A DNA stretch of 12,500 nucleotides from a virus. The notes beneath the pieces were generated by a model. That model saw only the letters and a list, made by a program, of their open reading frames with translations. It was not told the DNA's origin and made no database searches. Shown here piece by piece: positions 3,126 through 12,404 of this stretch; position 1 is the stretch's first letter, and every line of letters starts with the position of its first letter. The stretch is from the UHGV virus genome UHGV-1789045; one strand, given 5' to 3'. The translations under genes and the position numbers were made by a program.

Positions 3126-3296
3126 TCAGAATGGACACGGCCCAAGGAAATAACGCTGATTTAATACTTCGACTCGGGACAAATTAAGGCATACCCGCAT
3201 TCCTTCGCGGTCACCATTATGGCGATACCAGAGAGCTTTCTGCGTGTACATGCGTCTCTGTAACTTGCTCTCCTTCACTGTGGTTGCAAGTGACAT
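3126..3296 (-). CDS. small hypothetical protein, 56 aa
   Basis: ATG at 3296..3294 preceded by a strong RBS (AAGGAG, 6-nt spacer). Translation MSLATTVKESKLQRRMYTQKALWYRHNGDREGMRVCLNLSRVEVLNQRYFLGPCPF. Overlaps the next ORF (3220..3375) in another frame, so only one of the two may be real. Confidence 0.3.
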   Translation of the reverse strand: MSLATTVKESKLQRRMYTQKALWYRHNGDREGMRVCLNLSRVEVLNQRYFLGPCPF

Positions 3297-3375
3297 GAAT
3301 ATCTCCTTCGTTACCGATTAAATCTTTCATCTGACGAATGAATTCTTCGTCTGACCAGTTATCTGTAAAACTCAT
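3220..3375 (-). CDS. small hypothetical acidic protein, 51 aa
   Basis: ATG 3375..3373 overlaps the stop of the Kil-like ORF in an ATGA arrangement, suggesting translational coupling. Translation MSFTDNWSDEEFIRQMKDLIGNEGDIHVTCNHSEGEQVTETHVHAESSLVSP. Weak RBS; overlaps ORF 3126..3296. Confidence 0.3.
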
Positions 3376-3494
3376 TTCCTGCGATACCACGGAAGGTTGA
3401 TGGCTGATTTCATCGCTTTATTTGCTTCAAGCCACATTTTTGAATCACCAATAAATCTGGCTATTACTGCTTTGTTTTGTGCTGCACGAAGCAT
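3372..3494 (-). CDS. Kil-like small protein, 40 aa (host-killing / FtsZ-inhibitor candidate)
   Basis: ATG 3494..3492. Translation MLRAAQNKAVIARFIGDSKMWLEANKAMKSAINLPWYRRK. Sits between cIII and the recombination genes, where lambda has kil. The FIGDxKM segment resembles what I recall of lambda Kil (memory only). No clear Shine-Dalgarno. Confidence 0.35.
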   Translation of the reverse strand: MLRAAQNKAVIARFIGDSKMWLEANKAMKSAINLPWYRRK

Positions 3495-3508
3495 CTGGTG
3501 ATTGATGG

Positions 3509-3643
3509 CTATTTCATTGCGCATAACGCCTCCAGTTGTTTCTTTGCTGCTCTGATTAATTGTTTAACTCGGCGTGATAATTCAGATTCGTGCGGGTAGA
3601 AAGCGGACATGACGCCGCTACCCGCGAACTGAAAGTGCATCAT
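3509..3643 (-). CDS. cIII: cIII-like protease-inhibitor peptide, 44 aa
   Basis: The track ORF 3509..3748 runs through a terminator hairpin. The internal start at 3643 has GGAG 6 nt upstream. Product MMHFQFAGSGVMSAFYPHESELSRRVKQLIRAAKKQLEALCAMK has a central amphipathic helix like lambda CIII (PSESLLERITRKLR...). Position after N and tL1 matches lambda. Confidence 0.55.
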   Translation of the reverse strand: MMHFQFAGSGVMSAFYPHESELSRRVKQLIRAAKKQLEALCAMK

Positions 3644-3708
3644 GGGTAACTCCTTCTGTTTGATTGCATAACGAAAACGCCTCAATTGAAGCGTTATTGG
3701 TATGCATA

Positions 3709-3733
3709 TAAAAAAGCCCTCACATTGGAGGGC
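3709..3733 (-). terminator. intrinsic terminator of the leftward operon (tL1-like)
   Basis: Plus strand aaaaaa-GCCCTC-acattg-GAGGGC (stem 3716-3721 / 3728-3733). On the minus strand this is a 6-bp GC-rich hairpin followed by a U-run. Lies between the 83-aa gene and the cIII-like gene. Confidence 0.5.
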
Positions 3734-5183: not shown

Positions 5184-5900
5184 TCAAACCAGTCTGAGTT
5201 TTGTCTCAATTGCAACGCCTATAATCTTGCAGTTTCCATTGATTGGCACGAGAGGCCATGCAGGATTAAGTCCCTTGAGGTATTTATTTCCGCCGTCGAT
5301 TATCAGCTTCTTGAATGTTGCTTCGTTAGAGTCAGAAAGTTTTGCTATGACCAAGCTGCCGTTGATCGCCTCCCTTCCGGTATCGAAAAGAACGAATGTT
5401 CCCTCTGGAATGCTTAACCCAACCGGTGCCGTCATTGAATCACCTTCCACTTTAAGCCAGAACGCATTACCTTGAATATGCGCGTCAGACTCAAGCCAAA
5501 CATCTATGTCTTTAATGGTGTATGGTTCGCATGCTTCACACCACGAGCCAGCCTGGATACTGCTTAACACCGGATACCTCTTTCCTGCTCTGTATTCCCC
5601 TGCATACCTTACGTTGGCATCGCTCTTAAGGCTTTCTGCCTGTTCTGCAACCTTGGCAGCAATTGACTGGCTAAAATCAGCAATTGAGACTTGCAACAAT
5701 CGTGCAAAACCAGATGCGACCTCAACGTTTAGCGCGTTTCTGCCATTAAGATAATGCCCTACCGCTCCTTGGGTGATACCCAGTTCATCAGCGATTGAGT
5801 ATTGGGTTATTCCCAATTCTTTCTTTTTTGACTCATACAAAGCCTTAAGCCGCTTAGCGTCTTCGAGCTGTTCTGTCGTCAGTGATTTTTTATTTTCCAT
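5184..5900 (-). CDS. cI: CI-type prophage repressor (lambda-cI-like HTH N-domain + LexA/S24 autocleavage C-domain)
   Basis: 238 aa. N-terminus KKSLTTEQLEDAKRLKALYESKKKELGITQYSIADELGITQGAVGHYLNGRNALN closely parallels lambda CI. C-domain FWLKVEGDSMTAPVGLSIPEGTFVLFD...ATFKKLIIDGGNKYLKGLNPAWP...NGNCKIIGVAIETKL matches the P22 C2 / lambda CI S24 peptidase fold, with Ser in GDSM and Lys in FKKL. Confidence 0.95.
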   Translation of the reverse strand: MENKKSLTTEQLEDAKRLKALYESKKKELGITQYSIADELGITQGAVGHYLNGRNALNVEVASGFARLLQVSIADFSQSIAAKVAEQAESLKSDANVRYAGEYRAGKRYPVLSSIQAGSWCEACEPYTIKDIDVWLESDAHIQGNAFWLKVEGDSMTAPVGLSIPEGTFVLFDTGREAINGSLVIAKLSDSNEATFKKLIIDGGNKYLKGLNPAWPLVPINGNCKIIGVAIETKLRLV

Positions 5901-9610: not shown

Positions 9611-9640
9611 ATGACCATCTACATCACTGAGCCAATAACA

Positions 9641-9670
9641 GGCCTGCTGGTAATCGCAGGCCTTTTTATT
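9641..9670 (+). terminator. intrinsic terminator after the replication genes (tR2-like)
   Basis: GGCCTGC-tggtaatc-GCAGGCC hairpin (9641-9647 / 9656-9662) followed directly by TTTTTATTT. Confidence 0.55.
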
Positions 9671-9699
9671 TGGGGGAGAGTAATTGGAGGCTTTAAGAA

Positions 9700-9915
9700 A
9701 TGAGTACGATAGCTGAGCTTGTCAGGGCTAATTTTCGTGAAGAGTTGGTGCGTTGGTATCGGTATCGTTCATCGTCCAGTTTGCCGATTGATGAGTTGTA
9801 TGAGCATTCACCTGCTGCACGACGCTATCCGCGTGACCGTGTTCTTCGACGGTTGTCCAAACTCAACAATGAGTTTCAGCGCAACAGAATTATTCGGAGT
9901 CTGGATTTAAAGTAA
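9700..9915 (+). CDS. hypothetical basic protein, 71 aa
   Basis: ORF with GGAGG 7 nt upstream of ATG 9700. Arg-rich (RRYPRDRVLRRL...RNRIIR). No family recognised. Confidence 0.5.
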   Translation: MSTIAELVRANFREELVRWYRYRSSSSLPIDELYEHSPAARRYPRDRVLRRLSKLNNEFQRNRIIRSLDLK

Positions 9916-9925
9916 AGGAGTGAGC

Positions 9926-10132
9926 ATGACAAATCAGCAGCAAATAGAGTTCATCCTTGAGCAGATTAGAAAAATGCGAGAAAAGAACCAGCCAGACATG
10001 ATGGAAATATGGAGACGCCAGCAGGAAGAATACCGCAAGCATATTTTTGGTGAGAGAAAACAGGATGACTGGAGCCTATATGGCTATGGCACCAGGACAA
10101 ATAAAAACGGATATAGCCTTTACACATATTGA
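9926..10132 (+). CDS. hypothetical protein, 68 aa
   Basis: The track starts at GTG 9920. ATG 9926 has AAGGAG 5 nt upstream. Product MTNQQQIEFILEQIRKMREKNQPDMMEIWRRQQEEYRKHIFGERKQDDWSLYGYGTRTNKNGYSLYTY. Confidence 0.5.
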   Translation: MTNQQQIEFILEQIRKMREKNQPDMMEIWRRQQEEYRKHIFGERKQDDWSLYGYGTRTNKNGYSLYTY

Positions 10133-10551: not shown

Positions 10552-10730
10552 GACGACAGCGACGAAGTATCACCGACATAATCTGCGAAAACTGCAAATA
10601 CCTTCCAACGAAACGCTCCAGAAATAAACGCAAGCCAATCCCAAAAGAATCTGACGTAAAAACCTTCAACTACACGGCTCACCTGTGGGATATCCGGTGG
10701 CTTAGAGAACGTGCGAGGAAAACAAGGTGA
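10548..10730 (+). CDS. ninE: NinE-like small basic protein, 60 aa
   Basis: ATG 10548 overlaps the ninB stop (ATGA). Product [60 protein letters not shown]. Size and position between ninB and ninF match lambda ninE. Identity is from memory. Confidence 0.5.
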
Positions 10731-10897
10731 TTGACCAAAATCGAAGTTACGAACAAGAAAGCGTCGAGCGAGCTTTAACGTGCGCTAACTGCGGCCAGAA
10801 GCTGCATGTGCTGGAAGTTCACGTGTGTGAGCACTGCTGTGCAGAACTGATGAGCGATCCGAATAGCTCAATGTACGAGGAAGAAGACGATGAATGA
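10727..10897 (+). CDS. ninF: NinF-like small Cys-rich protein, 56 aa
   Basis: GTG 10727 overlaps the preceding stop. Product (M)[55 protein letters not shown], which I recall as near-identical to lambda NinF. Below the ORF-track cutoff. Confidence 0.6.
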
Positions 10898-11357
10898 GTT
10901 AATAAATGGCAATGCCATCAAAATGACAAGCATTGAAATCGCTGAGTTGGTTGGTAAGCGTCATGACAATGTGAAACGTACCATAATAAAAAACGGGATA
11001 AAGCACGATATTAAATATGAATATTATGAAAATAATCTAGGATTCAAAGTTAAGCGAGAGGTTTTTGTTGTTGATGCTGATGTTGCTAACGTGTTTAAGC
11101 ATCAGAGAATAGCATTAAATAGATGTGCTGAAACAATAGCATTAACCACCATCGAACAATTACAAGGAGTTAAATTAATAAGGCAATATCAGGTTTTAGA
11201 TAAATACCGCATAGATGGCTATGATACTGTAAACAATATCGCCTATGAAATAGACGAGGAACAACATTTTGCGCCTCAGCATATGGACGCGGATCGCATT
11301 CGCGAGGAAGAGATAAAATCGGCGTTATGTTGTAAGTTTGTGCGCATTCGCGTTTAA
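10890..11357 (+). CDS. Rha-type phage regulatory N-domain fused to a Vsr/DUF559-like (PD-(D/E)xK-type) nuclease-like C-domain
   Basis: 155 aa. N-terminus ...IKMTSIEIAELVGKRHDNVKRTI fits the Rha/antirepressor N-domain signature. C-terminus IDGYDTVNNIAYEIDEEQHFAPQHMDADRIREEEIKSALCCKFVRIRV fits the D...EIDxxQH...D..R...L...F.RI pattern of Vsr/DUF559 endonuclease-like domains. The gene is markedly AT-rich compared with its flanks. Confidence 0.65.
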   Translation: MNELINGNAIKMTSIEIAELVGKRHDNVKRTIIKNGIKHDIKYEYYENNLGFKVKREVFVVDADVANVFKHQRIALNRCAETIALTTIEQLQGVKLIRQYQVLDKYRIDGYDTVNNIAYEIDEEQHFAPQHMDADRIREEEIKSALCCKFVRIRV

Positions 11358-11388
11358 GCGAATACAATTTGCAAACCGGAGAATAGCA

Positions 11389-12114
11389 ATGAGTAATTTA
11401 ATTTGTTTTGATTCCGTTAAGATGTCCAGTATCGAAATTGCCGAACTGGTAGAAAGCCGCCATAGCAATGTAAAAGTATCCATAGATAGATTGGTGAAAC
11501 GTGGCGTTATCAAGCCTCCTGCATTGCAGCACACTAACATAATCAATGATTTATGTGTTATTACCGGGAGGCGTGATTTCTACGTCTTCGAAGGCGAACA
11601 AGGTAAGCGAGATAGTATTGTTGTTGTTGCCCAGTTGTCGCCAGAGTTCACCGCTCGTCTTGTTGACCGTTGGCGAGAGCTTGAAGAAGCTGCGGTTAAT
11701 ATCCCAAAAACGCTACCAGAAGCGTTGCGCCTTGCTGCTGACCTTGCTGAGCAGAAAATGCAACTGGAAAACCAGCTCGCAATTGCCGCACCTAAAGTTG
11801 AGTTTGCCGATCGCGTTGGCGAGGCCAGCGGAATTTTGATTGGAAACTTTGCAAAGGTTGTTGGAATTGGTCCAAACAAACTGTTTGCGTGGATGCGCGA
11901 TCACAAAATCCTTATTGCTTCAGGTTCCCGGCGCAATGTGCCAATGCAGGAATATATGGAGCGCGGCTATTTCACAGTGAAAGAAACAGCGGTCAACACA
12001 AATCACGGAATACAGATATCGTTCACCACAAAAATCACCGGGCGTGGTCAACAGTGGCTGACCAGAAAGCTGCTCGATAACGGAATGTTGAAAGTAACCG
12101 GGGAGGCTGCTTAA
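11389..12114 (+). CDS. antirepressor-like protein: Rha-type N-domain + KilA-C/ANT C-domain
   Basis: The track ORF starts at 11338. ATG 11389 (RBS GGAG) gives MSNLICFDSVKMSSIEIAELVESRHSNVKVSI..., matching the N-domain of the preceding gene register for register. C-terminal region IAAPKVEFADRV...GNFAKVVGIGPNKLFAWMRDHKIL...MQEYMERGYFTVKET fits the KilA-C/ANT antirepressor domain. Confidence 0.7.
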   Translation: MSNLICFDSVKMSSIEIAELVESRHSNVKVSIDRLVKRGVIKPPALQHTNIINDLCVITGRRDFYVFEGEQGKRDSIVVVAQLSPEFTARLVDRWRELEEAAVNIPKTLPEALRLAADLAEQKMQLENQLAIAAPKVEFADRVGEASGILIGNFAKVVGIGPNKLFAWMRDHKILIASGSRRNVPMQEYMERGYFTVKETAVNTNHGIQISFTTKITGRGQQWLTRKLLDNGMLKVTGEAA

Positions 12115-12404
12115 TGGCTAATCTACGCAAAGAAGCACGCGGCAGAGAATGCCAGGTACGTATTTACGGCATATGCAATGGCAACCCTGAAACTACAGTT
12201 CTGGCACATTACCGGATGGCTGGAATTTGCGGAACGGGAATGAAGCCTGACGACCTGATCGGTGCATGGGCTTGTAGTGACTGCCACGCGGAGATCGACC
12301 GACGCACCCATAATCTCGACAACAAAGACGCCAGACTTTATCACCTCGAAGGCGTGATCAGGACGCAGGCGATACTGCTGAAGGAGGGGAAGATTAAGTC
12401 ATGA
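12114..12404 (+). CDS. DUF1364-like zinc-binding phage protein, 96 aa
   Basis: ATG overlaps the upstream stop (TAATG). Paired Cys/His clusters: CQVRIYGICNG...H...CSDCH. This family commonly precedes rusA in lambda-like prophages (memory). Confidence 0.6.
   Translation: MANLRKEARGRECQVRIYGICNGNPETTVLAHYRMAGICGTGMKPDDLIGAWACSDCHAEIDRRTHNLDNKDARLYHLEGVIRTQAILLKEGKIKS

Follow-up and report, generated by a model that had tools for sequence, protein, structure and literature searches.

The window analysed here, a 12,500-nt stretch of UHGV virus genome UHGV-1789045, covers the early region of a lambda-like prophage, and its nin region runs ninB, ninE, ninF, gene A, gene B, ybcO and the start of rusA. 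Genes A (10890..11357, plus strand, 155 aa) and B (11389..12114, plus strand, 241 aa) are flanked by two conserved genes, ninF on the left (10727..10897, plus strand; Pfam NinF, E 1.7e-12, and HK97 and HK620 annotation) and ybcO on the right (12114..12404, plus strand; DUF1364, a putative nuclease; Pfam YbcO, 2.3e-43, and HK97 annotation), and rusA starts at 12401. The original prediction, made from the letters of the window, described A and B as tandem paralogs with a shared Rha N-domain and different C-terminal domains, lying just upstream of rusA, and proposed that they could act as an antirepressor or anti-immunity module or as a two-component interference system; both open reading frames (ORFs) and their gene context are as it described. 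Our data show that gene A encodes a Rha-type winged helix-turn-helix (wHTH) joined to a nuclease fold that is conserved and Vsr-like. They also show that the gene is an insertion into the nin operon, rare and distributed horizontally, whose junctions inside roi are chimeric.

The wHTH of gene A spans approximately residues 11–72 and is followed by a Vsr/DUF559-like PD-(D/E)xK nuclease domain at residues 76–155 (11115..11354, plus strand), which is apparent in an alignment of 45 family sequences and is weakly matched by PADLOC (mREase_II core only, 5e-6). The structure prediction called for at the outset, an AlphaFold model computed from the family alignment (pLDDT 84.7), consists of a winged helix (beta-alpha-alpha-beta-beta) and, after it, an alpha/beta nuclease core, i.e., the restriction-endonuclease-like core of Vsr-type topology, and a Foldseek comparison with viral models returned DUF559 proteins, proteins annotated as homing endonucleases, and giant-virus Bro-N nuclease fusions. 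The nuclease-like character originally proposed for this C-terminal domain is borne out by the Vsr/DUF559-like fold. The C-terminal ~75 residues are the most conserved part of the family, and E81, E89, D109, E120, D122, H126, D135 and R138 are invariant in the alignment. The spacing of D109, H126 and D135 (17, 26) is that of D196, H213 and D222 in I-Bth0305I, which have been assigned to the active site (PMC3239194). Judged by spacing and fold, D109, E120, D122, H126 and D135 are putative active-site residues of gene A, where the conserved catalytic Asp / Glu-x-Asp / His / Asp pattern of Vsr-like/DUF559 nucleases can be recognised in the predicted protein.

Scanned by itself, gene A scores 24.3 bits with Phage_pRha (cutoff 29.9; profile positions 1–24 only) and 17.4 bits with DUF559 (cutoff 20.6). 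When the 45 homologues are scanned singly, 43 match Phage_pRha (best 7.3e-17), 37 DUF559 (E ≤ 0.01) and 26 the MTES_1575 restriction-endonuclease family, and the homologue in the T4-like Krischvirus vB_ESM-pEJ01 lies above both Pfam cutoffs (Phage_pRha 34.6 bits, DUF559 23.5 bits). Searches of PDB sequences with the full family profile and with the C-domain profile gave no match, and neither PHROGs nor NCBIfam holds a family for the nuclease half. Full-length relatives, 145–170 aa long, number in the hundreds (461 matches at E ≤ 1e-3, from E. coli, Salmonella, Chromatium and metagenomes); homologues are 40–74% identical across 93–100% of the length, and dN/dS of the nuclease domain is 0.10–0.36. 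The nuclease module is also joined to Bro-N, AntA and other N-terminal domains besides Rha, and roi itself swaps N-domains, in agreement with the shuffling of domains on a Rha-type scaffold that had been proposed for this pair.

The window copies carry private substitutions, P101Q (11191), P113T (11226) and G147C (11328) in A and G56C (11554) in B, all four of which are C-to-A or G-to-T transversions that could be oxidative damage, sequencing error or real mutations. Decay of the gene A copy, a possibility raised by the three substitutions in it, was rejected since Q101, T113 and C147 sit at family-variable positions.

Gene B is best started at the ATG at 11389, which has a GGAG ~8 nt upstream and gives a length equal to that of HK97 roi and of the RefSeq models. 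From 11411 (codon 8) onward it is 96% identical at the nucleotide level to roi of HK022 and HK97, and it occupies the conserved slot between ninF and ybcO/rusA. It combines an HK97-type Rha-like N-domain (Phage_pRha, PF09669, 23.6 bits vs. a gathering cutoff of 29.9, profile positions 1–91) with the ANT/KilAC C-domain that had been predicted for it (PF03374, aa 127–229, 112.8 bits vs. a cutoff of 25.3, E 1.3e-32), a profile that has no match in gene A; furthermore, it matches PHROG 63 at 1e-89, and a PADLOC scan gave no defence-system match for it. Near-identity and gene order identify gene B as an already known protein, the ordinary Roi of HK022/HK97-type lambdoid phages, and the region is matched in 1,838 of 5,426 complete E. 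coli genomes, about a third. Gene B differs from the HK022/HK97 genes in its first 20 codons, which are diverged (MSNLICFDSVKMSS in gene B), and in having a ribosome-binding site (RBS) of its own instead of the translational overlap with ninF.

Roi is cited in PMC3430580 as implicated in HK022 lytic growth. A single match to the IHF consensus, AATCAATGATTTA, lies at 11541–11553 in the allele-specific N-domain coding part of the window's roi; with 0.74 expected, one match does not exceed chance. It deserves mention as the Roi phenotype is linked to IHF. In the 1996 work of Clerget and Boccard, Roi was reportedly found to bind DNA, at a position inside its own gene close to an IHF site, and was reportedly linked to lytic growth in IHF mutants, not to repressor inactivation.

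In both genes M[TS]SIEIAELV..RH.NVK comes after a leader of 11 residues, and the shared module in the same register is confirmed by the alignments: BLASTP of the two N-termini gives 21/40 identical residues (E 7e-9), and profile–profile comparison of the gene A family with Roi-like proteins gives a probability of 98.4% (E 9e-15) over 35 columns. A weaker in-frame repeat of 31 nt, 81% identical, encodes KVKREVFVVDA in A and QGKRDSIVVVA in B and takes the homology as far as the beta-hairpin, at about residue 65 of A. The two proteins have unrelated C-terminal domains. At the DNA level, BLASTN between the 5' segments of A and B finds no match, and in the shared SIEIAELV stretch 6 of 8 identical codons differ synonymously, which excludes a recent tandem duplication. 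The claim of tandem paralogy consequently stands as homology of the N-domains at the protein level and falls as a recent or local duplication. The N-termini of A and B are, by these comparisons, anciently homologous and in addition grafted, and there is no duplication to date in the manner envisaged, given that the first 32 codons of A are a graft and the leader of B came with the inserted cassette.

The graft can be delimited closely. Codons 1–32 of gene A (10890..10984, plus strand) are codons 1–32 of an HK620-type roi: positions 10880–10984 are identical to the roi 5' end at 104/105 nt in HK620 and at 105/105 nt in phage Gally, with HK633 within 99–100%. The ninF stop codon overlaps the gene A ATG (ATGAATGA), and the identical ninF–roi junction is found in HK97 and HK620. 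Compared with an HK97-type roi, the cassette comprises 499 nt (10952..11450, plus strand) that separate roi codon 20 from codon 21 and keep the reading frame; HK97 roi equals the gene A 5' end up to 10951 and equals gene B from 11451, the switch falling at one codon. Besides the body of gene A, the cassette holds the intergenic RBS and a substitute 5' end for roi, and its GC content is 0.31–0.41 vs. 0.48–0.50 in the flanks. As ninF is directly followed by roi in HK97, HK022 and HK620, gene A is an insertion.

The intergenic spacer (11358..11388, plus strand), which holds the GGAG Shine–Dalgarno sequence for roi, lies inside a stretch collinear with phage mEp044 (82%, 11135–11400) and with a prophage group (L004; 73%, 10995–11685), and it is judged from this collinearity to have arrived as part of the cassette. 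The replacement roi 5' end, codons 1–20 (MSNLICFDSVKMSSIEIAELV; 11389..11450, plus strand), diverges at the DNA level from canonical roi, with a difference at almost every synonymous site; these first 62 nt of gene B resemble the leaders of roi-like genes in mEp044 and in the L004 group, and in E. coli genomes they occur only together with gene A. The collinear module of L004 comprises a nuclease gene body, the spacer and the N-domain of the next roi-like gene. Its native, ungrafted E. coli family gene (P0004, 145 aa) is without a leader, and in a by-eye reading of the alignment its DNA is roughly two-thirds identical to that of gene A over codons 12–32.

These breakpoints show that gene A came into the ninF–roi junction by recombination inside the conserved helix-turn-helix coding stretch common to roi and the incoming gene. 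The simplest history would be one recombination between a phage with an HK620-type ninF–roi arrangement and a donor carrying a Rha-type nuclease gene followed by a roi-like gene, with the left crossover at roi codon 32 and the right crossover downstream, where roi alleles are alike. By that recombination A would have inherited the roi start, leader, first helix and ninF overlap, and B would have kept the donor RBS and leader. Through recombination in the shared stretch gene A now starts with the first 32 codons of the HK620 roi allele and uses the roi start, which is translationally coupled to ninF, and the grafting event explains why A and B present the same module in the same register. The Rha-type nuclease gene existed before it received the roi 5' graft.

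Cassette-specific DNA is found in 5 of the 5,426 complete E. coli genomes, in prophages that differ from one another both before ninF and after ybcO. All six copies (five E. coli and the window) retain an intact 155-aa ORF, and all five E. coli copies, the window and the L004 group have the nuclease beside an HK97-like roi N-domain. RefSeq/PGAP annotates only the first 96 nt of gene A, as a pseudogene named 'Rha family transcriptional regulator, incomplete, missing C-terminus' (locus positions 1691–1786 or 1636–1731 in L019–L022, i.e., E. coli VTB97022v, MB46, IR53017 and XH992), and the next ~370 nt, which encode the nuclease domain, are unannotated in these four records.

Further variation was seen around the same spot. 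At the VTB97022v locus (L019, 2190–3211) roi is cut to an 84-aa remnant and followed, 14 nt on, by a 256-aa gene with an ORF6N N-domain and the same Roi ANT C-domain, a second N-domain replacement that has left a 5' remnant behind. On a metagenome scaffold (ERZ1478587; L023, 262–2075) the first 46 aa of gene A, A-specific residues included, are joined downstream of ninF to a different PD-(D/E)xK-like domain with a weak SduA_C/Shedu match (E 0.002); an AT-rich spacer separates the fusion from a P-loop protein of 399 aa (GQWGTGKT), and the arrangement resembles an insertion of the defence type at this position. In MB46 and XH992 (L020 and L022, locus positions 3202–3726) a 525-bp 'HNH endonuclease signature motif' gene lies between ybcO and rusA, with no counterpart in the window at 12400; it is a further endonuclease-type presence/absence polymorphism within 1 kb.

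Among 50,697 phage records only 25 carry the nuclease module; large lytic Vibrio phages and vB_ESM-pEJ01 are among them. In the latter (L036, 540–2725) a 145-aa Rha–Vsr member lies between gene 32 and frd, with an HNH–AP2 gene on the other side of gene 32. The gene 32–frd query from this phage is matched by 64 phage records and covered completely only by vB_ESM-pEJ01 itself; all 59 of the other records covering ≥80% of it miss ~19%, about the length of this gene, at best-place identities of mostly 90–99%. This slot of RB49-like phages holds different genes in different isolates: in the two relatives inspected they are a 460-aa 'endonuclease' with CapR and zinc-finger domains (Phi1, L037) and a 109-aa ORF (kvi, L038). 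This slot is a classical niche of free-standing homing endonuclease genes, and presence/absence polymorphism at a fixed site, the mark of such genes, is seen both here and at the ninF–roi junction. HNH_3 endonuclease genes adjoin family members in L024, L033 and L036. Family-profile scans of genome and viral collections gave 4 and 6 loci, and the neighbourhood statistics rest on ~13 contexts; a neighbouring Rha-family gene is present in only ~4 of the 13, and for this reason such a neighbour was dropped as a defining feature of the family.

With moderate confidence we interpret gene A as a free-standing endonuclease of the homing type, or one used in competition between phages, from an uncharacterised family that combines a Rha-type winged helix with a Vsr-like (EDxHD/DUF559-type) nuclease. 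The wHTH, whose nearest relative would be the DNA-binding domain of HK620-type Roi and not that of the resident HK97-type, would position the protein on a specific DNA site; the Vsr-like domain would nick or cut DNA close by in a lambdoid phage that is co-infecting or co-resident and lacks the cassette; and recombinational repair would copy the cassette, together with the adjacent 5' part of roi, into the cut genome. This interpretation draws on the rarity of the insertion and its different nin backgrounds, on the sharp breakpoints, the native L004 gene without leader and the low GC content of the cassette, and on the occurrence of the module on varied DNA-binding domains, at low frequency, in lytic phages too and beside HNH_3 genes. 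The architecture of I-Bth0305I serves as a precedent.

Like gene A, I-Bth0305I carries a DNA-binding region at its N-terminus and a Vsr-like domain at its C-terminus; free-standing homing endonuclease genes of phages (Hef genes) belong to its family (PMC3239194). The N-terminal region of this EDxHD enzyme consists of NUMOD/HTH repeats, whereas that of gene A is a Rha-type wHTH and not of the NUMOD type; sequence identity between the two is only 14%, and Pfam and PDB sequence searches gave no direct link between them. Unlike intron- or intein-borne homing endonucleases, gene A resides in neither, and its nuclease activity is predicted. Compared with small Vsr-like proteins of the DUF559/NGO0050 type (PF04480; PDB 3hrl), its nuclease domain is shorter (~75 aa) and fused to phage DNA-binding domains. 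The literature consulted, PHROGs and NCBIfam yielded no prior description of the Rha plus Vsr-like nuclease family or of its cassette insertion in roi. The ORF6N–ANT roi variant of L019 and the Bro-N, AntA and Rha versions of the nuclease share in the shuffling of domains seen in other viral regulators, in which N-terminal DNA-binding modules are exchanged on common C-terminal ones. Such shuffling of Bro-N, KilA-N, Rha and ANT domains in regulators of DNA viruses is said to have been described by Iyer, Koonin and Aravind in 2002.

Several points weigh against an active homing endonuclease. Cleavage, a target site and homing, that is, everything beyond a DNA-binding protein with a nuclease fold, are what we infer from sequence. 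Lambdoid phages are mosaic anyway, and a rare module in different backgrounds is alone no proof of active homing. Both Pfam matches of gene A are sub-threshold, and the sequence searches of PDB with the family profiles gave nothing. The cassette genome retains codons 1–32 of the HK620-type roi, hence any target must span or lie beyond the junction at 10984; and, as the neighbour is a Rha-family gene in few contexts, the specific link to roi is not general. On balance our verdict is that gene A is a putative Vsr-like homing-type endonuclease gene with a Rha-type domain, mis-annotated in public records and grafted in frame into roi.

The alternative that survives best, which we nevertheless consider rather unlikely, is a weapon resembling Odn of phage ICP1, and not a purely selfish gene, in which the DNA-binding domain of gene A copies that of a rival HK620-type Roi and binds its putative operator, so that competing lambdoid phages or satellites would be destroyed and the HK97-type resident spared. 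In agreement with this, the alignment of the ungrafted family N-domain with HK620-type Roi spans 58 aa and takes in the wing (43% identical, E 4e-10), but that with HK97-type Roi or its own neighbour spans only 23 aa. The nuclease is paired with an HK97-like roi N-domain in the five E. coli copies, the window and the L004 group, and a further phage group has the body of gene A, the spacer and the roi N-domain in collinear order as one module (73% identity); however, these pairings amount to only two independent lineages, and many family members are without a Rha-family neighbour. Odn (Gp88), which provides the precedent, is likewise a nuclease of homing-endonuclease ancestry whose N-domain is homologous to a DNA-binding protein of another element, in that case RepA of PLE (PMC8263062); Odn joins a T5orf172/GIY-YIG nuclease to RepA_N, whereas gene A joins a Vsr-like nuclease to a Rha/Roi-type domain and its targeting is predicted. 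The overlap with the homing model is heavy, and the two cannot be separated by sequence alone. Equally tentative is the more specific proposal that gene A is a 'regulator-mimic' nuclease with HK620-type Roi specificity, always travelling with an HK97-type roi and cutting the putative Roi operator or the roi gene of rivals. If this were true, roi allele diversity would be the product of an arms race between nuclease and target, and it would be explained why the nuclease body and the N-domain of its neighbour are inherited as one module.

It is improbable, in our estimate, that gene A is a regulator and not an enzyme, i.e., a short DNA-binding protein of the Roi kind, competing with Roi or modulating it at its site, in which the Vsr-like domain serves dimerisation or is catalytically dead. 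Family members do carry the name 'Rha family transcriptional regulator' in RefSeq and other sources, the N-domain is clearly Rha/Roi-like, and domesticated homing endonucleases acting as regulators are known, as in the case of CapR (PMC8096241). On the other hand, none of the residues that correspond to the Vsr/EDxHD active site varies among 45 diverse members, and of the two halves the C-domain is the better conserved; moreover, the nuclease module is joined to unrelated DNA-binding domains and is found in lytic phages at homing-endonuclease slots.

We assign a similarly low probability to gene A being a non-functional recombination scar, in which a roi 5' fragment is fortuitously in frame with a fragment of foreign DNA. 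That PGAP annotates no more than an incomplete Rha pseudogene of 96 nt at the start of gene A conforms with such a scar, and scars do exist at this locus, as exemplified by the 84-aa roi remnant in L019 and the 46-aa gene A fusion in L023. Against it stand the intact ORF in six of six copies, the hundreds of full-length homologues, the dN/dS values given above and the position of Q101, T113 and C147 at family-variable sites.

That A and B form an antirepressor or anti-immunity pair, or a two-component interference system directed at the repressors of other prophages, is the least probable of the readings and very unlikely: the ANT/KilAC domain of B is named after P22/P1 antirepressors, and A and B are same-strand neighbours between which a scan gave no promoter or terminator signal exceeding shuffled expectation, but the antirepressor label rests on that domain name only, nearly all roi-bearing phages are without gene A (HK022, HK97, HK620 and all but 5 of the 1,838 matching E. 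coli genomes), the gene A family is found where there is no Roi and also in T4-like and large Vibrio phages that are strictly lytic, where an anti-immunity role would be senseless, and the sole Roi experiment known to us concerns, at least by its title as cited in PMC3430580, DNA binding and lytic growth in IHF mutants and not repressor inactivation.

As to the remainder of the window, the left arm encodes a Rad52-type recombinase, SSB and an N-like gene, the immunity region comprises cI (5184–5900, minus strand), cro and cII, and the replication genes encode an O-type initiator and a primase-helicase. Two small ORFs between the primase-helicase gene and ninB, at 9611–9703 (30 aa) and 9920–10132 (70 aa), have no significant family match; their neighbour, a 71-aa ORF at 9700–9915, is DUF7301.

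Lambdoid prophages are a textbook case of mosaic evolution. The making of mosaic joints by endonucleases is well documented in T4-like and ICP1 phages and, to our knowledge, hardly documented in temperate coliphages. Should gene A be inactive, the locus would still be a worked example of how in-frame recombination in a shared helix-turn-helix gives rise to apparent 'tandem paralogs'. If it is an active site-specific nuclease, lambdoid prophages carry homing-type endonucleases that help to create mosaic joints inside genes; in that case the widespread family of small 'Rha family transcriptional regulators' and 96-nt pseudogenes would need re-annotation as nucleases, and the likeness of the N-domain to one roi allele would offer a testable handle on the obscure function of Roi and on its discrete N-domain alleles.

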